Shown: positions 2,334 to 64,000 of the stretch, in pieces
Layout of the letters: the number at the start of each line of letters is the position of its first letter
Numbering within the stretch: position 1 is the first letter of the stretch
Assembly: GCA_041287365.1 (NCBI GenBank)
Contig: JBEULL010000020.1
Span: forward strand, 3,426 to 67,425
DNA from: Dissulfuribacterales bacterium
GTDB taxonomy: Bacteria > Desulfobacterota > Dissulfuribacteria > Dissulfuribacterales > DYLC01
Reading direction: 5' to 3'
Length of the DNA stretch: 64,000 nucleotides
Made by a program: the position numbers and the translations under genes
Notes under the pieces: model-generated
The model's input: only the letters and a program-made list of their open reading frames with translations
The model's database searches: none
Told to the model about the DNA's origin: nothing

Positions 2334-4020
2334 CAAAACAGGTGTGCATGGCCGCGGCCAGGCACACCTGTTACACAACGAAACAGGAGCTATTCGCAAG
2401 ACATGGGGGCGCATCGGAAAATCACGGGGTATAACTCCGGTCGCACTCATCTTTCCCAATACATATGCGGTAGGCATGTCGAATCTTGGCCTACAAACCC
2501 TTTATGCCACGCTGAACGCCCAACAGCATATCGCGGCCGAAAGGTTCTTTTATCACGAGGGGTCCCCCTGGAAATCGGAAGAGAGCGGAAGGCCCCTGAA
2601 TGACTTTCAAATCCTGCTGTTTTCCGTCAGTTTTGAGGCGGATTATCCCAACGTCATTCGCGCCATCTCGGCCTGCGGCCTGTCCCCTCTGGCAGCAGAT
2701 AGAGAAAACGAAAAAGGTCCTCTGGTTCTGGCCGGCGGTGTGGCCACATTCATCAATCCGGAACCATTGGCGCCATTCATAGATGCCTTTCTTTTGGGGG
2801 AATTCGAGGCCATCTCCCCTGACTTTCTACCCATTCTGAAGGACTTGGCAGATACACAGACCAACAGAAAGACCCGGCTTGAGCTTCTGGCCGGAAACTG
2901 TCATTGTGTCTATGTTCCGAACCGTTTCTCCACAGCGATAACGCCGGCCCGACAGATACACCCCATGGAAACAGTTCCCCATACACGAATCATCTCCGGT
3001 GATGCAGCCTTCTCCAACATGTTTTTGCTGGAATTGGCCCGAGGATGCGGAAAGGGATGCCGTTTCTGCGCAGCCGGCTTTGTGTACAGACCGGCACGGC
3101 CATGGCCCCAGGAAGCGCTGCTTTCCACCCTAAATGACATAAAAGGAACCGACAAAATCGGTCTGGTGGGATTGGAATTCCTTCAGAGGGAGGACATCAA
3201 TCATATCTGCGAGAACCTGCTGAATCGGGGTATGCGCCTTGCTTTCTCCTCCATGCGCATAGACAACCTGACCGACGCCTTCATAGAGGTACTCATAAAA
3301 TCGCACATAACCACAGCCACCATAGCGCCTGAGGCTGGCTCGGAACGCATGCGGGCCATCATAAACAAAAATCTGACGGAAGAGACCATTCTTGCCGGTA
3401 TCGAACGACTGGCTACAGCCGGAATCCTCAACTTCAAACTATATTTCATGTACGGCCTGCCCTTTGAAACGCCTGAGGACATGGAGGCATTGGTCGGACT
3501 TATAAAACTGGCAAAAAAAATCATAACCCCCATCGGGCAAAAACAAAAACACCTGGGGAATATCACTGTATCAGCTGGCACCTTTGTGCCAAAGGCATGG
3601 ACACCGTTTCAATGGTCGGACTTTATCGATGAAAAAACACACACGATCCACAGGAACATCCTGATAAAAGGCCTTTCATCCTTGGCAAATGTACGATTGA
3701 GGCTGGATTCCTGGCGTTCTGCAAGTATTCAAGCCATATTAAGCCGCGGAGACCGCACCCTGGCCCCCATTCTGCAAGATGTGGCCTTGAATGCCACGCC
3801 ATGGCGCAAGGCATTCAAAAACTGTAAGGACAAGGGGCCTAACGCCCCCACAGCCGCATCCTTTTTAAAAGGCAGAGACATTCACGAAACGTTGCCATGG
3901 GAAGCGGTGCAACACAGCATAACAAAGGCGTTTCTGCAACAAGAATGGGCAAAGGCCAAAAAGGCAAAGAACAGCCCGTCCTGTATGCCTGGCTGCAGAC
4001 GCTGCGGGGTATGTAATTGA
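2287..4020 (+). CDS. B12-binding-domain radical SAM protein (TIGR03960-like; start uncertain)
   Basis: FPNTYAVGMSNLG, LELARGCGKGCRFC (CxxxCxxC), APEAGSERMR, C-terminal CxxxCxxCGVC. Confidence 0.85.
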   Translation: MKTLQRWNKRNPLLNNKTGVHGRGQAHLLHNETGAIRKTWGRIGKSRGITPVALIFPNTYAVGMSNLGLQTLYATLNAQQHIAAERFFYHEGSPWKSEESGRPLNDFQILLFSVSFEADYPNVIRAISACGLSPLAADRENEKGPLVLAGGVATFINPEPLAPFIDAFLLGEFEAISPDFLPILKDLADTQTNRKTRLELLAGNCHCVYVPNRFSTAITPARQIHPMETVPHTRIISGDAAFSNMFLLELARGCGKGCRFCAAGFVYRPARPWPQEALLSTLNDIKGTDKIGLVGLEFLQREDINHICENLLNRGMRLAFSSMRIDNLTDAFIEVLIKSHITTATIAPEAGSERMRAIINKNLTEETILAGIERLATAGILNFKLYFMYGLPFETPEDMEALVGLIKLAKKIITPIGQKQKHLGNITVSAGTFVPKAWTPFQWSDFIDEKTHTIHRNILIKGLSSLANVRLRLDSWRSASIQAILSRGDRTLAPILQDVALNATPWRKAFKNCKDKGPNAPTAASFLKGRDIHETLPWEAVQHSITKAFLQQEWAKAKKAKNSPSCMPGCRRCGVCN

Positions 4021-54758: not shown

Positions 54759-54885
54759 GATGGCTTGGCAAAAATTGTCAAATGCAAAGCACGCAAATCT
54801 TGAGGACTGAGGCATACTTCCTATACCATCAGTGATGAATAAGGCAGACTGCAAGTAGCAGTTGGCGACTTTGTAGGATGCCATC
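54759..54885 (+). mobile_element. MITE-like repeat, copy 1
   Basis: Termini GATGGC...GCCATC; shares the exact 16-mer AGCAGTTGGCGACTTT and AAATGCAA-N4-CGCAAA with the inverted copy at 56833-56912. Confidence 0.65.
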
Positions 54886-54974
54886 ATACTTAAAACAGAA
54901 TAAGGCGTTGGACAGCCAGTTATAGTCAGTTACACATCACAGACTAACAATTGAAGCTGACAGGAGGAATTATC

Positions 54975-56834
54975 ATGTTAACCAATTCAAATATCAGGGT
55001 GAAATGGCACGTTGAAAGTAACTGCATCAAAACAGAATGGTGCACCCCTCTATCCAGCACAAGCCAAACAGTTCTGGACATATTGGATCAGGACTGCCTT
55101 GATACTTACTTTCAGCCCATCTGTTCTTTGATAGATGGGTCAGTGTTTGGATATGAATCCCTTGCACGGTTGGCCAACAACCCTTCAACCAATATATGTC
55201 AGATCTTCAGGAATGCCATCGTAACCAGAACAATCATATTTTTAGATATGAGATGCAGAGAAAATGCGGTTAAAAAGGCCTCTGAGCTCGGATTGGCTAA
55301 CAGATCCAATCTGCTGTTTATAAACACTGCGCCTGATGTGCTGACAGATGATGCTCACTCAGTCAAAATGGCTTGCGACATGGTAAAAAAATATGGCTTC
55401 AAAAACGAACAGGTTGTTATTGAAATCACAGAAGAGGGAAATGGCCATAATTGTCAATTCATGAAAAGGGTTATTCAGGAATATAAAGACGCTGGCTTCA
55501 AAATTGCGATTGATGACTTCGGAGCCGGATATGGCGGACTTGCGATGCTGTCAAATATAGAGCCGGATTTCATTAAAATAGATCGACAGTTCATTTCAGA
55601 TATAGATAAAGCTGCAATAAAATATAACCTAGTCGATTCGATCGTGACTTTATGCCACAGACTTGGCATAAAAGTCATCGCAGAAGGGATTGAGAGAGAT
55701 GAAGAGTTGAAGATAGTGCAAAGCATGGGCATAGAATTCGGACAGGGATATCTTCTGGGGAGACCAGCCTCAACCTTTAATTTCAACGCCGTACCGATTC
55801 CAAAGCGCCACAATATAAGCAAGAGCACACGGGAAATTTCCACGATTTTTGATATAACAGAGTATGTGGAACCGTTGACGCCGGATACAAACATATTCGA
55901 AGCGCAAAGAAGATTTTTTCAAGATAAACGGCTTCAAATGATACCTGTAATAGAAAACAGTAGGATAATTGGCATCATACAAAGAAACAGATTTCTTGAA
56001 AACAAGCTTATCGGAAATTTTGGCTTTGGAATGCATATAAATGCAAAGAAAAAAATCAAGCAACTGATGGAAGTTCCAAGCATGATAGTGGAAGCTGACT
56101 TATATATAGAAGAAGTCGCACAAAGGATCAATGGTCGGGAATTTGAATTGTTATATGATGATATCTGTGTGACATCGCATGGAAAATATGTCGGAACAGT
56201 CACTATTGCAAAATTGTTACATACAATCACAGAACAAAACATCAGACTTGCAAAAAATCAAAATCCACTGACAGGTCTTCCTGGCAACGATGCGATAAGA
56301 AAGGTGATTCAAAAGAAAATAGACCAACATATACATTTTGATATACATTTTGATGTTTGCTACATCGATATAAACCACTTCAAACCCTACAATGACCACT
56401 ATGGATTTGAAAAAGGCGACTTAGTTATTCAGACTCTGGCTCAGATACTTGTAGATTCAGTAGCTTATTCTGAACACGAACAATTTAATTTTATAGGACA
56501 TATCGGGGGAGATGATTTTATATTGATGCTTCATCCAAAAGACTCTCTAAATATATCAGCTAAAATTATCGACAAAATGGAAAAAGAACTTATTACATTT
56601 CATGGAGAAGAAGATTTTCAAAAAGGTTATTATGTATCAAAAAACAGAAAAAACGAGACAGAGATATTTCCATTGCTCTCCATTGCAATTGCTATTGTAA
56701 GCACAGAAGTCACATGCATAACATCCTATGCCCATTTAGCCTCTGTAGCCGCAGAGGTTAAAAAAGCCGCCAAGCAAAAGGCTTACCAGACAAAAAAGTC
56801 AGCAATCTGCCGAGACAGACGATTAAATGGTTGA
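54975..56834 (+). CDS. EAL-CBS-GGDEF c-di-GMP metabolism protein (RapA-like architecture)
   Basis: FQPI, ESLAR, IEITE, DDFGAGY, KIDR, AEGIE, GQGY; CBS pair; NPLTGLPGN, D...FK.YND.YG...GD, GGDDF; RBS AGGAGG. Confidence 0.93.
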   Translation: MLTNSNIRVKWHVESNCIKTEWCTPLSSTSQTVLDILDQDCLDTYFQPICSLIDGSVFGYESLARLANNPSTNICQIFRNAIVTRTIIFLDMRCRENAVKKASELGLANRSNLLFINTAPDVLTDDAHSVKMACDMVKKYGFKNEQVVIEITEEGNGHNCQFMKRVIQEYKDAGFKIAIDDFGAGYGGLAMLSNIEPDFIKIDRQFISDIDKAAIKYNLVDSIVTLCHRLGIKVIAEGIERDEELKIVQSMGIEFGQGYLLGRPASTFNFNAVPIPKRHNISKSTREISTIFDITEYVEPLTPDTNIFEAQRRFFQDKRLQMIPVIENSRIIGIIQRNRFLENKLIGNFGFGMHINAKKKIKQLMEVPSMIVEADLYIEEVAQRINGREFELLYDDICVTSHGKYVGTVTIAKLLHTITEQNIRLAKNQNPLTGLPGNDAIRKVIQKKIDQHIHFDIHFDVCYIDINHFKPYNDHYGFEKGDLVIQTLAQILVDSVAYSEHEQFNFIGHIGGDDFILMLHPKDSLNISAKIIDKMEKELITFHGEEDFQKGYYVSKNRKNETEIFPLLSIAIAIVSTEVTCITSYAHLASVAAEVKKAAKQKAYQTKKSAICRDRRLNG

Positions 56835-56912
56835 TGGCGGTGCAAAAAGTCGCCAACTGCTGCGCGCCCCACTACATTTGGGTTTTGCGCTCCTTGCATT
56901 TACGGAGCCATC
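56833..56912 (-). mobile_element. MITE-like repeat, copy 2 (internally deleted, inverted)
   Basis: GATGGCGGTGCAAAAAGTCGCCAACTGCT...TTTACGGAGCCATC; overlaps the TGA of the upstream gene. Confidence 0.65.
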
Positions 56913-56942: not shown

Positions 56943-57986
56943 TTAAATCTTGCTTGTTTCCACATGAAACCTTACTGTTGAACCTATAACCGTGCTTTTT
57001 CCGGTATGGAGAAAGGTTGTCACAAATATCAACTGAAGAAAAAGCAAGGGTTCTGCGCCCCAAATTCTGTGCAGACCCGTGGTCAAATCCACAAGCTGGG
57101 TGGTGCTCTGAAAGAAAAAAACCAGTGCGCCAACGTAACAGATGCTTGCAAGCGCCATTTTCTGGTATGCGGATATATTGCCCTCACCCCTGTAATCAGC
57201 CCGAAGTGTCTCTGAAAAAAAACGCCATAATTGCGTAACCGCAATGACGATAACAAGCGATGTCCTGAAAAAGCCATACAAAAAAAGCATTGTGCAGAAT
57301 ATGGCTGTCATCACGTATAAAACTGCTGTGAGTGCCTGAACCGGCACCACCGGCTTGCCATCCATATTGCCTGCATAGGCTATTTTTTTTGTCTTGCCAG
57401 AAAAGACAAAATTAAACCTGCCAAATAACCTTTGAACAAACTCATTAGATTCTGTCAGACTTTTACCATAACAACATCCGAAACTAATGCAGGCAAGCCT
57501 GCCGGTTCCCTCACCAAAGGCATAAGCAATAGCTGTGGCGCAAAGCATAGGAATAACAGGTGATGTGAGCCATGGAATGCCTGTCTCATTCATCCCCCAC
57601 AAAATCCACGGGGCAAAAACAATGCCCACGAAAGATGCGCCTCCCACAGTCAGTGTGTGCCTTTTTTTCTCTACGATCCAGGCGACAATACTTGACGCAG
57701 GGATGCAGATGGCAAGCATGAGCTCAACAAACAAAAAAACGCCGAAGAAATGTACATTCAGCGAGAATGTAAGCAGAATGAACATGGCGGCTGCGATGGT
57801 GTAAGCCAATGCTGAAAAAAAACCATAATATGTGAAAGCTAACCCTTTCCACACTCCATTTTCAAGCATTGCGACTGGAACACTGGCAATAAACTGCCAT
57901 CTTTCCTGTGTCAGACTTCTAAACGCCCACTTGAAAAGCACCAGATAGCCAACGGATAAAAACGTTAAAAACAAAATAGTCTCCAT
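56943..57986 (-). CDS. Lgt (prolipoprotein diacylglyceryl transferase)-like membrane protein, divergent
   Basis: Multi-TM; GEGTGRLACISFGCCYG, PVQ and RFFSETLR resemble the Lgt GRxGC/N..GCC.G, PxQ and RFxxExxR motifs; RBS AAGGAG. Confidence 0.75.
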   Translation of the reverse strand: METILFLTFLSVGYLVLFKWAFRSLTQERWQFIASVPVAMLENGVWKGLAFTYYGFFSALAYTIAAAMFILLTFSLNVHFFGVFLFVELMLAICIPASSIVAWIVEKKRHTLTVGGASFVGIVFAPWILWGMNETGIPWLTSPVIPMLCATAIAYAFGEGTGRLACISFGCCYGKSLTESNEFVQRLFGRFNFVFSGKTKKIAYAGNMDGKPVVPVQALTAVLYVMTAIFCTMLFLYGFFRTSLVIVIAVTQLWRFFSETLRADYRGEGNISAYQKMALASICYVGALVFFFQSTTQLVDLTTGLHRIWGAEPLLFLQLIFVTTFLHTGKSTVIGSTVRFHVETSKI

Positions 57987-57999
57987 GATGGCCTGCTCC

Positions 58000-58998
58000 T
58001 TATCTTTTTCTTGTTGCTATGGAAGAACGCACGTTCAGATCGGTTTCTACCATTTTTGAGCCAAAACCTGCTGAAAACCTGCTTTTTGCCAGAATATTGT
58101 GCTGATTTTGTATGAGATCAGCCTCAAACACCACTCGGTCTTTTTGAAACAGCAGGACTACAGTGCTGCTTCCAGGCCTAAACAGGCTCTTTGGCTGCCC
58201 CTTTTTCAAAAACATACCGAGTTTCATCTCCTTTGGGGCATCATATGCCACTTCACTGTAATACTGTTTAATTTCGCCTATCATGAGCGCCGCCACCTCT
58301 ATCATTGCGACAAGCCCCACGTAACTGCCTCCTTCACAGTCTGTATCTATGATGGTCACCGCCCTTTTGTTCTTGGAATAGGGCGTCACAAGGTTTATCA
58401 CTGCTGAAGGATTACACGAGTGATAACTGCCATTCAGCTCATAGAAATCCATGACAATCCCTGAGACAGGCATGTGGTTGTAGTGGTATTTCTCAGGTGT
58501 AAGCCGAAATATCGCAAAATCACCAGACCTGAAGGCATCTATCCATAAGGCTTTTTTCGCACCAAGCAACTCCTCAAAGCTGAAAAACTTCTCCTTGATA
58601 AAAAACAGTGCAGTTTCACATAACGATCCTATCAAGACCTTTGAATCCGCCGGAGAAACAATACGTTCGGAACAATCGTCCATTGGCCTGCAATCCCAAT
58701 AGCGAATCTTGCGCTCAAAGATTTTGCGAGGTGTATTAAGGCTCTGAGGTGGGTCAAGGCATTCCGACATATTTACACCCATCATTTTCAAAAACGCCAG
58801 ATTGCCGGTAAGCCTTGATGCAAGCAATGAATCGTAGTTGAGGTAACCCAGAAGAGCTGAGCTTATACTGTTTGTCAGGGCATTAAATACAAATGCAGAG
58901 TTTTCCCTGACGCTTGCATAGATAAAGTTGACTATTTTATCTGCATACAGCTTTTCTGTTAATATTTTACCAGTTGATCGCTCTATATATTGATGCAT
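58000..58998 (-). CDS. phosphatidylserine decarboxylase-family pyruvoyl enzyme
   Basis: FERKI, VSPADS, IKEK.F...ELL, FRLTPEKYHYNH.PVSG, KNKR, self-cleavage motif FRPGSSTVVLLF. Confidence 0.88.
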   Translation of the reverse strand: MHQYIERSTGKILTEKLYADKIVNFIYASVRENSAFVFNALTNSISSALLGYLNYDSLLASRLTGNLAFLKMMGVNMSECLDPPQSLNTPRKIFERKIRYWDCRPMDDCSERIVSPADSKVLIGSLCETALFFIKEKFFSFEELLGAKKALWIDAFRSGDFAIFRLTPEKYHYNHMPVSGIVMDFYELNGSYHSCNPSAVINLVTPYSKNKRAVTIIDTDCEGGSYVGLVAMIEVAALMIGEIKQYYSEVAYDAPKEMKLGMFLKKGQPKSLFRPGSSTVVLLFQKDRVVFEADLIQNQHNILAKSRFSAGFGSKMVETDLNVRSSIATRKR

Positions 58999-61423
58999 AT
59001 GCCGCTGATTCCTTTTCGCTGTTTTCAAATAACGCTGTATTATACAAAACTACTAGTAGGATTATATTTACAAGCATTTTTATTTCATCTATTGACAGAC
59101 TGTCTGACAAAAGTTTCGCTCTGAGTTCATTACATAATCCTTTAATATTTCTGCGTTTTGATAGATATGCAACTGCGTGCAGTAGTCTACTGTCAAGGGC
59201 GCAGGCATTATCTTCAATCGCAGCGATATCCTCGTTTACAAATCCTAAAGCCTCATCGAGATATTGTCTTCTGAGTTCATTGCGGTAGTATCGTTCAGCA
59301 GCAAGATTGAACTCATTGGCCTCCATCCTGATAGCTTTCTTATTTGATGATGCGCCAAGGATGCCATCTAAAAGTTTGGCCTTGGCAGAGTGCAAATGCG
59401 GGGCTTCAATACGCATTTCAAGATCAGACAAGTCCTCTTCAAAGCCCCACATCTCTATCAGATCTGCTGCATCCTTTCGAAGCACCTTCAAAAGCGCCTT
59501 GTTGTACTCCTTAGCGTAAACCCTGATATAACCTGAATAACGTCTGCTGGACCTTGTTTTTTCAGTGTATTGCAAGATGTAACGCAAAAAAGCATTTTGT
59601 GTGTCTGAACACACAAAGAAGGTAGGAAGCCCTATAGCTGATGCAAAAAATATCTGTCTGCGCTCACTTTCCACAAAAACACTATCAGGGATCATTTCAT
59701 GCTTCAATTTCTGCTCAGCTATGTACTTGAAAGCAAGACATGAGACCAGAACTTGCATGTTGACGGCATGTGTCATGTCATGCCTGAGGCTTTTAAAAAG
59801 GCTGTAATATCTGCCTTCAAAGCCTGAAAAACCCATTTTTTCATATTCCCTGAGCCGGTAAAGCTGATAGACAGCCATCCTTTCATCAAATACGCCCATC
59901 TCAGCCAGATCACGCTTGAGCCTCTCGCTGTTTCCGACCTTGCCATCAAGAGATGGGTTTTGATCAGTGCTCAGAAGCGCGGCCATATAGTCAATCAACC
60001 TGAAATCATCTACAAAATCCCCTGAAAGCCTGAAGGTGGCGGCAATGAAATTGTCCAGCCACTTCGGGCCAAAAGGCGTAACAGGCTGCCCGAAGATATT
60101 TATATGGGCCTTTTTCTTCCACCGTCTCCATAGCATTCTGAGGTGTGTGTAATGCAGTTCATGCGGCAGAAACCCAAGGGCATTTTCAGGATGAAAGTCT
60201 GCAAATCCAAGCCGATAGGGCGCTGCGCTGTAGGTGCCCACAAAAAGAGGCAAAAAATGTTCAATTATCTTTATGGCAAGGTCGCCAAGGTGTTTTTCAT
60301 GGGCTTTTGTAACCCTGTTCTCCTGAAAGGCGTTGGATAATATTCTGCTTCCGAGGCTGATATGTGTGCCATTATTTGCAAGACTAATGTTTGAGGTGTT
60401 TGGGAGAGAGACAAGATTGTTGTTGATGATGCCGGCTTCCTTCAACTTTGAAATGGCATTTAATCGGCTTCTACTTAAAACCTGGTGACAAAGTACCATA
60501 TAATGATATTTTTCCTCACCCATTTGCCAGCCTGAAAGACAAGGACTGATAAAAAGCTCCCTATAGAATGAATCGGAAATGATGTCGTTGAGATAGCGCT
60601 GTCTTATGGGAGGATGGGGAGAAAAATACACCACTGCCTTTTGTTTTGTATCTTCAAGTTGAAACTTTCTGTTGGCATAGCTGACCAGTAGACTTGACAA
60701 CAGGAAACGGATGGATTTTTCTTTTGCGACCTGACTGCCCCCTGCCGCTTCAGGGCCAAGCCTCATCACATAAAAGGAATATGTTTCAGGAGATGTATTG
60801 TCGTTCAGATAATGCTTCAAAAGCCGTATGGCAGTTTGACGGATGGAAATCGGAAGCTCCTTCTGCACGCCGACAATGTCAGCAAGACTCAGCTTAATCA
60901 GATAGCTGATCGGTATCCTGATCATTTCCACACCATCTATGATCTTTATGAACCTGCTTATATCCTTTCTGTAGCCGTTAGCCTTGTTTTTTTTATTAGC
61001 AAGTAGGTCTTTGAATAAGACGCGTCGGGTAAAAGTATCAAGTAGAATTGGTGAAAATCTTACCCAGCTATTTTCCCAGACATTGTCTGAATTGTTATCA
61101 AGATATTCATCAAGATCAGACAGTTTAGCCTTACTGACCTCTCCTGTTTGCCATCGTTTAACTATGTTATTGTAATAGTTGGAGGATTTGATAGTGACAG
61201 GAAGGTCAACGTCGTCTTTGCTTCCATATACTGCAACTTGCAACTCACTTTCAGAACCTGCCGTCACATCAAAAGGAGTAAAGGGAAGTTTGCTGTAATT
61301 TAGCTTGCCATCAGGGAGAAAAAGCCCGAGGGTGCTCAAAATCTCCAGAGTGGATACGGAATCTGCCTGAAAATCCCTTTGTTCCGAACTTATCGATGCA
61401 TGCAGCTTGAGAAGCCTTGCCAT
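58967..61423 (-). CDS. large hypothetical protein, probable glutamine synthetase/gamma-glutamylcysteine ligase-fold carboxylate-amine ligase
   Basis: Long intact ORF with RBS AAGGA 6 nt before ATG 61423; motifs TAGSESELQ (GxExE), NNGTHISL (GxH) and GFEGRY (ExR). Confidence 0.6.
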   Translation of the reverse strand: MARLLKLHASISSEQRDFQADSVSTLEILSTLGLFLPDGKLNYSKLPFTPFDVTAGSESELQVAVYGSKDDVDLPVTIKSSNYYNNIVKRWQTGEVSKAKLSDLDEYLDNNSDNVWENSWVRFSPILLDTFTRRVLFKDLLANKKNKANGYRKDISRFIKIIDGVEMIRIPISYLIKLSLADIVGVQKELPISIRQTAIRLLKHYLNDNTSPETYSFYVMRLGPEAAGGSQVAKEKSIRFLLSSLLVSYANRKFQLEDTKQKAVVYFSPHPPIRQRYLNDIISDSFYRELFISPCLSGWQMGEEKYHYMVLCHQVLSRSRLNAISKLKEAGIINNNLVSLPNTSNISLANNGTHISLGSRILSNAFQENRVTKAHEKHLGDLAIKIIEHFLPLFVGTYSAAPYRLGFADFHPENALGFLPHELHYTHLRMLWRRWKKKAHINIFGQPVTPFGPKWLDNFIAATFRLSGDFVDDFRLIDYMAALLSTDQNPSLDGKVGNSERLKRDLAEMGVFDERMAVYQLYRLREYEKMGFSGFEGRYYSLFKSLRHDMTHAVNMQVLVSCLAFKYIAEQKLKHEMIPDSVFVESERRQIFFASAIGLPTFFVCSDTQNAFLRYILQYTEKTRSSRRYSGYIRVYAKEYNKALLKVLRKDAADLIEMWGFEEDLSDLEMRIEAPHLHSAKAKLLDGILGASSNKKAIRMEANEFNLAAERYYRNELRRQYLDEALGFVNEDIAAIEDNACALDSRLLHAVAYLSKRRNIKGLCNELRAKLLSDSLSIDEIKMLVNIILLVVLYNTALFENSEKESAAYASIYRAINW

Positions 61424-61450
61424 GGACAATCCTTATATTTTTTGACAATG

Positions 61451-61495
61451 AGGATAATCACAGGAAATGACAAAAAAGTTAAAATAGTGTTATAG
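61451..61495 (-). promoter_or_regulatory. PhoB-type promoter for the ligase/PSD/Lgt operon
   Basis: Minus strand CTATAAC-N4-TTTTAAC-N4-TTGTCAT (three half-sites, 11-bp period), exactly 10 bp, then -10 TATCCT. Confidence 0.6.
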
Positions 61496-61540
61496 TTTTA
61501 AAACATTCAAAAAAACAAACTTTAAAAGGCAGTTTCGACC

Positions 61541-61745
61541 GAAAAAAAAGAAGAAAGCAAAGAAGAAAGGACCAATAAGAAAGGACGGCCAATAAGAAAG
61601 GACAGGCATATCTTTTAAAATAAAATTTAATAATAAAATACATTAATAAAGATATGCCTGTCCTTTCTTTTCTCCGCTTTCTTTTCTCCCTCCTTTCTTT
61701 TCTCCTTTTCTCCCCCTTTTTTTTCTTTTCATTGCCTTCTTTTCC
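61541..61745. repeat. 76-bp palindromic element A (61594-61669) with flanking truncated end-repeats
   Basis: 22-bp perfect arms AAGAAAGGACAGGCATATCTTT / AAAGATATGCCTGTCCTTTCTT around a 32-bp AT spacer; left-side partial copies of AAGAAAGGAC, right-side copies of CTTT(T)CTCC. Confidence 0.9.
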
Positions 61746-61975
61746 ATGATATCTTTCTGAGGTCTTATGTGACTGACAATCTGGTGTCGTATTTTTTAAC
61801 GCCACTCGCTGGAAATCACATAAAAACACGCTGAATCAGAAGTGACGAACGGTTCAGCGTTGTTGTTTCGTTTATAGGTTTGGGTCGTAAAAAATTAAAT
61901 TGGCTTGTCATTCGTTATGTTTTTTATTATATATCGATGAACGGAGATTATGAAATTCTCACTCGCGAGGCGTTT

Positions 61976-62695
61976 ATGGATGCTTTCAGTAGAATGAAAA
62001 TAAAATTCTTTGATCTGATCGAGGAAAATCAACTTGGGTCGGTTCCGGTTCGAGTAAATGTTCGCAGCCTGAAACCGGGAGAGGCCATTGGGAATCCAGA
62101 AGACCGGGATTATCCCCTGATCAAGGGCCGTGAGCGGTTATTGGAAGCGGAAATCCTGGGCAGCCGGGGGCAGGCGTTTACGGACACCACCGGCTCCTTT
62201 TGTGGCGCATTGAAAGATGTGGCTCTCTTGCAGCTGGATGGTAATCGCTCCCGCGCGATTTTCATCGCCGCTCTGAACGCCTTGATGCGACATTTAGGCT
62301 TGATCGAAAAAACCATCCATTGCAAAGATGCGTCCCCGCCTCTTTGCGCCTCGGAACTGGTCAAGCATATTCAGGAAAATTTCGGGAATCCGCGGGTGGC
62401 CATGATCGGCTTTCAGCCTCGCATGGCGCAAGCATTGGCCAAAACTTTCGCCCTGCGGGTTACGGATCTTGACGAAGACAATATCGGACAAACGAAATTC
62501 GGTGTTCTGATTGAGGGACCGGAGCAGACCCCAAAGAACATTGAGTGGTGCGACCTTGCATTGGTGACCGGAAGCACCATCTCCAACGGAACCATTTGTG
62601 ATCTGAGCAGTAAACCCACCCTTTTCTTCGGGGTTACCATCGCCGGGCCGGCCCTCTTGCTAGGCCTGAATAGATATTGTCCTTTCGGCTCTTGA
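61976..62695 (+). CDS. DUF364-like (Rossmann-like, putative metal-binding) protein
   Basis: EAIG.P...DYPL.KG.E...EA...G..GQAFTD, RA.FIA.LNA, TIHC.D..P..C, LVTGST..N; ATG 61976 after GAGG. Confidence 0.75.
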   Translation: MDAFSRMKIKFFDLIEENQLGSVPVRVNVRSLKPGEAIGNPEDRDYPLIKGRERLLEAEILGSRGQAFTDTTGSFCGALKDVALLQLDGNRSRAIFIAALNALMRHLGLIEKTIHCKDASPPLCASELVKHIQENFGNPRVAMIGFQPRMAQALAKTFALRVTDLDEDNIGQTKFGVLIEGPEQTPKNIEWCDLALVTGSTISNGTICDLSSKPTLFFGVTIAGPALLLGLNRYCPFGS

Positions 62696-62705
62696 AAAGC
62701 AAAGC

Positions 62706-62781
62706 AAGAAAGGACAGGCATATCTTTATTAATATATTTTGTTATTAAATTTTATTTTAAAAGATATGCCTGTCCTTTCTT
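62706..62781. repeat. 76-bp palindromic element B
   Basis: Same 22-bp arms as element A; spacer is the reverse complement of A's spacer with 2 mismatches. Confidence 0.9.
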
Positions 62782-62938
62782 TTCGTTCACCAAGACAGAC
62801 CCGAGTGTTGTCATCATAGGCGCGGGCGTCCTTGGGGCGGCATTATTCTGAAGACAATGAAAAAGGCGATAAGGGATAAGACGGATGCAACCGCTCATTG
62901 CAGATTGAGCGATGCCCGCGCGCAACCGGATGCAGGCA

Positions 62939-64000
62939 TCAGATATCCAAAGGGCTTCGCACGCCAAGAAGATTTCTTTTTGCCACATGGGTATAGATCA
63001 TGGTGGTCTGAAGGTTTGTATGACCCAGCAGCTCCTGTAACGTCCTGACATCATATCCTGCTTCAAGAAGATGGGTGGCGAAGCTGTGTCTCAGCGTGTG
63101 AACCGATGCCTGTTTTGCAATCCCTGTCTTCATAAGCGCCTGTTTGAAGGCCTTCTGAACCGTTGTCGGAAAGATATGATGCCTCCTGACCCGTTTTGTT
63201 ATTGGATCAACTGACAGGCTCGCAGAGGGAAAGACCCAGAACCACGCCCATTCCTTTCCTGCATTTGGATATTTCAGGCCCAGGGCATCGGGCAGCCAGA
63301 CCCCGTCAATATTATTCTTGCGGTCCTCATCATATAACTTTCTGACTTTGTTAAGGATATGTTCCCTAACCAGTTCCCTGACAGACTCGGCCAGAAGCGT
63401 CTGGCGGTCTTTATCCCCCTTGCCGCTTCTTACTGTCAACGCGCCCCTTTCAAAATCCACATCCTTGATGCGCAGTTTCAGACACTCTTCAAGCCTGAGA
63501 CCTCCACCATAAATGAGGGTCGCCATCAGCTTTGTCGTGCCTTCCATGGCATCGAGAAGCCTCATCACCTCCTGCCTGGAAAGCACAACTGGCAGACGTT
63601 TGGGCCGGTTAGATCGCACCGCAGCATCCATATCCTTGATTTCCTTGTCAAGCACATGACGGAAGAGGAAAAGCAAGGCATTAAATGCCTGATTTTGAGT
63701 TGCAACAGCCGCCTTGCCTTCTACTGCAAGATGACTCAGAAAGTTTTCAATATCAGATTGCTCTATTGAATTTGGCAGCTTATGTCCAAGATAGGCTGCA
63801 AAACGCCTGACCCAACCCAAGTAGGTCTGCTCTGTATGATAGGAACGATGGCGAAGCCTCAAGGCCTTTACCATGAGATCGCCAATGTCTGCCCAGCCCT
63901 GTTGTGCTTCAACGCCGCTATTTTCAGAATCTGTTTTTTGTGCCTTTTCTGTGAAGTAGATGAAAAGCCTCACAGCCTCCTTGGCCTGCAAGACCTGCAA
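62939..64000 (-). CDS. intI: integron integrase, long form (5' end outside window)
   Basis: Tyrosine recombinase residues GLRLEE, GKGDKDR, HTLRHSFATHLL, LLGH and TTMIYTH, plus IntI-specific insertion V.LP.AL..KYP.A..EW.W.WVFP....S.DP....RRHH. Confidence 0.95.
   Translation of the reverse strand: MQVLQAKEAVRLFIYFTEKAQKTDSENSGVEAQQGWADIGDLMVKALRLRHRSYHTEQTYLGWVRRFAAYLGHKLPNSIEQSDIENFLSHLAVEGKAAVATQNQAFNALLFLFRHVLDKEIKDMDAAVRSNRPKRLPVVLSRQEVMRLLDAMEGTTKLMATLIYGGGLRLEECLKLRIKDVDFERGALTVRSGKGDKDRQTLLAESVRELVREHILNKVRKLYDEDRKNNIDGVWLPDALGLKYPNAGKEWAWFWVFPSASLSVDPITKRVRRHHIFPTTVQKAFKQALMKTGIAKQASVHTLRHSFATHLLEAGYDVRTLQELLGHTNLQTTMIYTHVAKRNLLGVRSPLDI

Follow-up and report, generated by a model that had tools for sequence, protein, structure and literature searches.

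Why should a single intact gene lie between two near-identical hairpins, one of them close to an integron integrase? The question is raised by a 64,000-nucleotide stretch of DNA, here called the window, from a Dissulfuribacterales bacterium (GenBank assembly GCA_041287365.1, contig JBEULL010000020.1, positions 3,426 to 67,425). An initial annotation had taken the hairpins for single-strand recombination sites that delimit mobile gene cassettes and are used by the integrase or by an HUH/RAYT-type nuclease encoded elsewhere. In this study, we examine the anatomy of the two elements, their distribution, their junctions and the genes that accompany them. We read them, with a probability of about 0.7, as copies of a dispersed 76-bp repeat that consists of the leader of a Y1 (HUH) transposase gene plus a second, inverted arm and was likely spread in trans by that transposase.

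Element A (61594..61669) and element B (62706..62781), to neither of which a strand is assigned, each consist of an arm, a 32-bp core and the same arm inverted. The arms of both elements are identical, perfect and 22 bp long, the core is A or T at 31 of its 32 positions, and the ends read AAGAAAG and CTTTCTT. A and the reverse complement of B agree at 74 of 76 positions, both differences falling inside the core; the coordinates, arms and AT spacers first described were thus right, as was the statement that the spacers are near reverse complements. All four strands have folding energies of about -22 to -24 kcal/mol (z scores of about -10 to -12), which none of 200 shuffles matched, and the stem has 22 consecutive perfect pairs. 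Terminal attC boxes are absent from both, as had been claimed, B having one internal GTT. No direct target duplication is visible beside either element, and no GTAG guide occurs in the arm or tails of either. The outer tail of A (61541..61593, + strand) is made of stuttered copies of the tail/arm junction with a 15-nt duplication, and the inner, right tail (61670..61745, - strand) is a pyrimidine-rich stutter whose best match is the right tail of a copy on contig C25. B has a short left tail (62696..62705, + strand) directly 3' of the stop codon of the enclosed gene. Logan contigs from three hot-spring runs of a single study, possibly the source sample of the assembly, have the core orientations and arrangement of the window, with zero differing letters over 58500-61623 and 61640-62735.

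The integrase is genuine, scoring 406 bits against TIGR02249 (cut-off 265). Its gene (62939..64000, - strand), which we treat as a neighbour only, is truncated at the 5' end, the contig stopping 140 bp beyond the window. The distance of about 160 bp past the intI stop that was ascribed to both elements holds for B (157 bp) and not for A (1,269 bp). The reading on which A and B are non-attC single-strand sites of this IntI that delimit a DUF364 cassette can point to the closeness of B to a true intI, to the bracketing of exactly one intact gene, and to the break of contigs C13 and C15 at the same intI position, which leaves the assembly without the 5' side of the integron, the expected place of an array. 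We nevertheless give it almost no credence: it fails on anatomy, distribution and cargo, and a cassette system for IntI is not real here.

As to anatomy, attC sites stand in direct orientation in an array linked to intI, whereas A and B are inverted, belong to a dispersed family and have no intI link in related genomes; recombination between inverted sites would invert the enclosed gene, not excise it. Like A and B, an attC site folds into a hairpin as a single strand, and one of our copies lies near intI; but attC stems commonly have extrahelical bases and an unpaired central spacer in the account of PMC2727003, and the perfect stems of A and B have neither of these, nor terminal R boxes.

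Distribution points the same way. Only A and B, two of the 13 sites in this genome, adjoin intI, leaving 11 away from it. Two internally deleted intI remnants (C15:12137-12434 and C23:44311-44491, 99% identical to parts of the window intI) have no adjoining arm, the nearest being 3.8 kb off. A survey of the class found intI in 39 of 69 genomes; at the 29 loci from other genomes that were scored (30 fetched), none of the full-length flanks, 21 upstream and 28 downstream, had GGACAGG[CT] within 400 bp. A home-made genome-wide attC scan, built on general box rules, returned three weak candidates, none of them convincing. We had also considered that joints crossing intI in runs X1-X3 record a deletion at the window locus, an idea that was rejected, the joints belonging to the remnants on C15 and C23. 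Logan contig depth was 0-4 over most of intI, 33-40 over the left flank and 23-34 over the DUF364 gene, and depth cannot rank genes. Taken together, the dispersal, the empty flanks of other integrase genes and the stems devoid of attC features speak strongly against A and B as IntI recombination sites. Their closeness to intI likely arises because the repeats and the integron collect in the same variable region.

The enclosed gene (61880..62695, + strand; start uncertain, probably downstream of 61937), the passenger between A and B, belongs to the DUF364 family (PF04016, E 5e-10). Its GC content of 52% exceeds that of its neighbours (about 41-43%), so the contrast first drawn stands locally, but it is near the genome mean of 49%. 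Against a cassette, the gene has a long 5' region with a putative ModE-like operator (61911..61938, no strand), recognised by 17 of the 22 specified bases of the consensus in PMC2700814, and its homologues elsewhere lack the arm motif, GGACAGG[CT] being present at 2 of 21 upstream and 0 of 23 downstream flanks (24 fetched loci; 26 genomes with a hit). ModE-like boxes with up to two mismatches number three genome-wide, one of them upstream of a modA-like gene on C9. At five of six listed homologous loci the neighbours are of the ABC-transporter substrate-binding type, three confirmed by Pfam and the rest judged by eye.

In genome G011 (locus L212) the DUF364 homologue and a modE-like gene are neighbours in divergent orientation. 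In the genome studied here (G000) the modE-like gene (on C25) and the DUF364 gene are apart, each beside a hairpin copy, in orientations and with tails that fit a two-copy crossover; the intergenic DNA does not align under that idea. To the right of B stands a short gene remnant (62785..62850, + strand) with a GxGxxG-type motif, which also occurs beside the C15 intI remnant and which we take to belong to a GxGxxG-type family. To the left of A, a three-gene cluster on the - strand encodes an 820-aa protein without a Pfam or NCBIfam match (58967-61429), a phosphatidylserine decarboxylase-like protein (58000-59028) and a 347-aa membrane protein without a Pfam match (56943-57986); it is kept in genomes G001, G002 and G003, with 85% DNA identity in G003. 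Farther left, a second inverted pair (54857-54886 and 56832-56861; 30 nt, 80% complementary) brackets an EAL-CBS-GGDEF gene and is a different dispersed repeat, with 13 arm matches in this genome and several in G003.

The genome as a whole (34 contigs, 2.1 Mb) yielded 23 arm records, three of which are one arm repeated in overlapping contig ends; C11 and C27 each had a weak hit that lacks the GGACAG core and was left out. Seven hairpins emerged (A, B and copies on C10, C17, C19 with a 15-nt insert, C25 with an extra arm, and C30), alongside six single-arm sites, or 13 sites in total. The five hairpins of equal length differ from one another at 0-3 bases: B is identical to the C17 copy and not to A, and A has two differences from each of B, C17 and C25. 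The wider arm search that had been proposed found dispersed copies with a tie to Y1 genes, described below, and no general one to intI. Among relatives, G002 has five arm matches and G003 seven, and no dimers of the A/B type were found in G001, G002, G007, G046 or G449, an absence that counts against the transposase model. Single units in relatives (L011, that is G003:C21, and L174 and L176 in G002) lie in direct orientation 0.4-0.9 kb apart, and G003 has one gene enclosed by two such units, both accompanied by a GGGGTCAG-type motif.

Beyond these relatives the trail is sparse. Exact-arm scans gave 10 loci in a collection of genome contigs and 19 in one of metagenome contigs, with zero hairpin dimers, and the loci look chance-like except for two from Shewanella. 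A 15-nt arm pattern matched 18 of 301 genomes of the phylum, mostly by single chance-like matches, and the dimer pattern matched three of 400 other genomes, with arms of a GGGG type and, in two, stutters. Viral contigs contained no hairpin dimer and no relative of the transposase, and all 35 Rfam matches fell below the gathering score.

The borders of the copies are peculiar. Duplications of at least 8 nt span the tail/arm junction in 14 of 22 scorable arms, as compared to 1.3% of 1,500 random and 3.0% of 232 purine-matched control sites. Three junctions could be set against an uninterrupted counterpart, and each of them interrupts a gene, the cut falling a few bases beyond the arm: a PPC-domain gene (C30 versus C11), a gene common to C19 and C28 (C19 versus C28) and a TetR gene (versus genome G008). 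These junctions join unrelated loci, and a clean pair of empty and filled insertion sites was not found among them, which counts against the transposase model. From translations, further copies presumably truncate PIN, GGDEF, phosphoesterase-like and reductase-like genes as well as the GxGxxG remnant. The copies thus cut through genes instead of bracketing whole reading frames, and their proposed role as boundaries of gene cassettes is not supported.

Overlaps of contig ends reveal two places with alternative cargo, C29-{C19|C28}-C12 and C23-{C2|C3}-C25, each with an arm at a seam; the alternative paths may represent co-assembled strains or missing links, not recent events. The cargo of C2 differs wholly from that of C3, as does that of C28 from that of C19, and, judged from translations, C2 resembles a type I-C CRISPR-Cas island and C28 a restriction-modification island. 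At the window locus, G003 matches the left flank of A at 85% up to about 61505 and its contig ends 112 bp later, so that it supplies no empty site for A. Logan contigs carrying B lead only to flanks already in the assembly, plus one loose end.

Size, perfect inverted ends, dispersal and gene truncation are all features that fit MITEs generally (PMC3184786), and the 22-bp arms could be the terminal inverted repeats of a classical MITE of a DDE insertion sequence. That origin is hardly likely: A and B lack direct target duplications, units of a single arm plus core are common, and the sole coding partner found is an HUH transposase.

This partner came to light when seven Y1 proteins were used as tblastn queries against the genome. 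Directly behind the arm on C4 lies a Y1 remnant (Shewanella query, 45% over 119 columns, E 5e-27), and the order there is stuttered tail, arm, AT core, TGAGG, 8 nt and a GTG start that opens a frame with an NHYH motif; the unit, in other words, directly precedes the ribosome-binding site and start codon of a transposase gene. The gene is internally deleted: compared with P0003, an intact database protein of 345 aa, it lacks about residues 89-312, and the identity is 95% over the 86 aa of the N-terminus and 84% in the C-terminal piece. In G002, a genome of the same genus, the homologue is intact (337 aa) and the unit stands immediately 5' of its ATG, and in both genomes a second, more decayed copy stands in direct orientation 3' of the stop codon. 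The first 54 nt of B (62706-62759, + strand) match the C4 leader at 85% over 54 nt, the inverted arm following as a cap; A, read on the - strand, runs in the same direction as the leader. Leaders, solo units and dimers, including A, B and the solo units of G002, align with 21 invariant columns. Since the unit precedes the transposase gene in both genomes and aligns with A and B, each hairpin is a leader capped by an inverted arm, and that part of the initial annotation which looked to an HUH/RAYT-type nuclease encoded elsewhere gains support.

The association extends to homologous loci. A related motif lies within 200 bp upstream at 11 of 18 of them, as compared to a background of 2.7%, a count from a pattern drawn after the loci had been seen and from loci that are not independent; the motif was missed at the other seven, which weighs against the transposase model. 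A Photobacterium locus has a GGACAGGC hairpin dimer just 3' of an intact gene, and in some relatives (G007, L156) inverted repeat copies surround the transposase gene. In a sister group of Y1 genes (29 loci), GGACAGG[CT] lies within 400 bp upstream in 20 of 23 scored flanks and downstream in 10 of 19. Junction stutters are much rarer there (6 of 38 arms), a further point against the model.

By motifs, length and core insertions, the partner is a subclass 2.3-type Y1 (HUH) transposase. The G002 protein (337 aa) has the motifs NHYH, FWEGR and YVDLNP and core insertions, and Table 1 of PMC6006769 lists for subclass 2.3 the motifs NHYH, WE and YVDLNP, core insertions and a size of about 325 aa. 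NHYH, WE and YVDLNP recur in 97, 115 and 117, respectively, of the 120 homologues listed. Of 8,000 candidates scored, 7,188 are homologues of the G002 protein at E <= 1e-60, many labelled transposase or RayT. Its predicted model (pLDDT 75.5) has as top fold match the E. coli TnpA-REP (PDB 4ER8, E 4e-4), followed by IS200/IS605 transposases. On the other side, its Pfam Y1_Tnp score of 19.1 is below the cut-off of 23 and phmmer found no relative among solved structures, both of which count against the transposase model.

Two further points tell against this model and open the way to alternatives. No intact cognate transposase is present in the assembly (97.8% complete, 34 contigs), and the intact-looking Y1 genes, on C28 and C7, are of another type than the C4 gene. 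A Pfam Y1_Tnp search of the assembly reported the C20 fragment only, missing the C4 remnant and the C28 and C7 genes that tblastn later found. The genes at C28:5986-6750, C7:about 3030-3670 and C20:3256-3528 contain short in-frame tandem REP-like inserts and resemble subclass 2.4. At C16:817-885 there is, besides, a 23-codon remnant of yet another Y1 type, which resembles a G001 gene whose ends carry GGGGTCAG; a decayed end motif precedes the remnant.

One alternative is that the repeats are moved not by the subclass 2.3 enzyme but by the REP-insert-type enzymes of C28 and C7, the only intact Y1 genes found in the assembly; in G002 such a gene is followed, 80 bp on, by one unit, and GC-rich REP-like repeats lie near several units. 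We regard this as quite improbable, given that the unit forms the leader of 2.3-type genes in two genomes, that the nearest arm is about 3.2 kb from the C28 gene, that the G002 unit points away from its neighbour gene, and that the arm lacks a GTAG guide and is not itself a short palindrome.

The broken cognate gene also lends weight to a passive origin, in which the unit does derive from the transposase leader but was multiplied by slippage, template switching or host recombination at an AT-rich palindrome, some copies perhaps now serving as promoters or terminators. Template switching is known to invert spacers and homogenise perfect arms, as described in yeast for spacers of 2-5 bp (PMC8604942), and the leader contains one 9/12 sigma-70-like match. 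Such processes would cover local stutters and flips, but not the dispersal of near-identical 76-mers, 0-3 differences apart, to unrelated sites, and they leave unaccounted for junctions that fall inside genes a few bases outside the arm. Passive multiplication is therefore unlikely as the main cause, and transposase-borne spread remains the reading that we follow. The core matches an IHF site poorly, and we set that possibility aside.

The orientation of the cores bears on how A arose. The initial annotation had argued from direct outer flanks that the core alone had flipped. The shared sequence AAAGCAAAG, however, adjoins B (62696), whereas its copy near A starts at 61554, 40 bp before the element. 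The 30-nt outer tails of the two elements align in neither pairing (scores -4 and -7), and so the flanks of A and B alone reveal no flip. Comparison with other copies is more telling. The tails of A score 57 against those of C25 with the core reversed and 32 otherwise, and 37 against those of C17 with the core reversed and 19 otherwise. Tails fit in the same sense for B-C17, C17-C25, B-C30, C17-C30 and C25-C30; those of B and C25 lean weakly to the opposite sense (8 versus -1) and those of A and C10 weakly to the same sense (33 versus 27). One past inversion of the core of A, or a crossover between two copies, is plausible on this comparison of tails. In the contigs examined, which drop rare variants, there was neither mixed core orientation nor inversion nor a circle. 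The flip that was claimed is thus plausible in the lineage of A, from the C25 and C17 comparison, and absent as an event from the contigs. Likewise, no cleavage, excision, circle or inversion was observed in contigs, the only material used, which counts against the transposase model.

Because arm plus core are a transposase leader on C4 and in G002, the hairpins are likely non-autonomous, TIRtron- or REPIN-like derivatives, mobilised, we infer, by the Y1 enzyme. By analogy with TnpA-IS200 and TnpA-REP (PMC6006769), the enzyme would bind the single-stranded arm, use its catalytic tyrosine to nick the strand immediately beyond it and attach the freed end elsewhere. Stuttered junction copies would result when this joining is repeated or aborted, and truncated genes when it is one-sided; near-identical copies would then also recombine among themselves and shuffle their flanks. 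The DUF364 gene would in this scheme be a resident, likely ModE-regulated, left between two independently arrived copies, and the core of A has probably undergone one reversal, either through template switching at the perfect arms or through crossover with another copy.

How does the element compare to systems already described? The genes called TIRYTs and their TIR repeat families, together forming TIRtrons, were described by Di Nocera, De Gregorio and Rocco in 2013 (PMC3733652), and 26 described TIRYTs have been placed in TnpA-Y1 subclasses 2.1 (mostly), 2.2 and 2.5 (PMC6006769). As in TIRtrons, a Y1 HUH gene is accompanied by a short end repeat unrelated to GTAG REPs, and the repeat is also found away from the gene as singles, dimers and groups in modest copy number (PMC3733652). 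The arm AAGGACAG agrees with the TIR motif GGGGWSAS at six of eight positions, short of the full motif, which is itself shared by only some TIRs (PMC3733652); full GGGGWSAS occurs in the sister-group arms and the phylum-level dimers. Set against TIRtrons as described there, the arm begins A-rich and not with GGGG, the gene in G000 and G002 is bracketed by direct and not inverted copies, and the repeat includes the AT-rich leader of the gene up to the ribosome-binding site; the partner, moreover, has the motifs of subclass 2.3 and not 2.1 (PMC6006769). Stuttered tails and gene-truncating junctions are present here, and we found no TIRtron description of them in those parts of PMC3733652 on which this comparison draws.

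The likeness to REPIN-RAYT systems lies in two inverted units with a spacer that form a non-autonomous hairpin (PMC3337134, PMC3116915), and the fold predicted for the partner is closest to TnpA-REP. Unlike REPINs as reported in those two papers, the element has no GTAG guide, its single arm is non-palindromic, its seven dimers are no high-copy family and its partner gene is broken here. With direct copies, six of eight GGGGWSAS positions and no GTAG, it works like a TIRtron or REPIN without being a strict member of either. Its partner shares with subclass 2.3 the motifs, the length of about 325-345 aa, the core insertions and relatives in Alteromonadales and other Gammaproteobacteria (PMC6006769). 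For the genes of that subclass, Quentin et al. (2018, PMC6006769) report no identifiable flanking REP-like structure, whereas a conserved end unit and hairpin dimers are present here. No published link between a repeat family and subclass 2.3 was found by a search that most of the subscription literature lay outside, and Figure 9 and additional files 4 and 5 of PMC3733652 may list a similar arm.

Judged from sequence comparison, the repeat is real and dispersed; it is non-autonomous and originates from the end of a Y1 transposase of the subclass 2.3 type. A candidate substrate can thereby be named for TnpA-Y1 subclass 2.3, a large group that has been reported as repeat-free (PMC6006769). An intact protein of the G002 or P0003 type and a 54-76-nt oligonucleotide make a direct cleavage test possible, and the junction stutters predict the expected nick position. 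Within this genome the copies mark the seams of rearrangements, and they may therefore contribute to strain-level variation. A bolder reading, possible though doubtful at present, is that subclass 2.3 enzymes form a one-ended, single-strand gene-shuffling system, in which the unit would be a nick-and-join site spliced to arbitrary positions, the stutters would record re-initiation, and bracketed genes, such as the C2/C3 and C19/C28 cargoes, would be swappable modules. If true, it would be an HUH counterpart of integron cassettes and would provide the first substrate for an uncharacterised subclass with over 7,000 database homologues.
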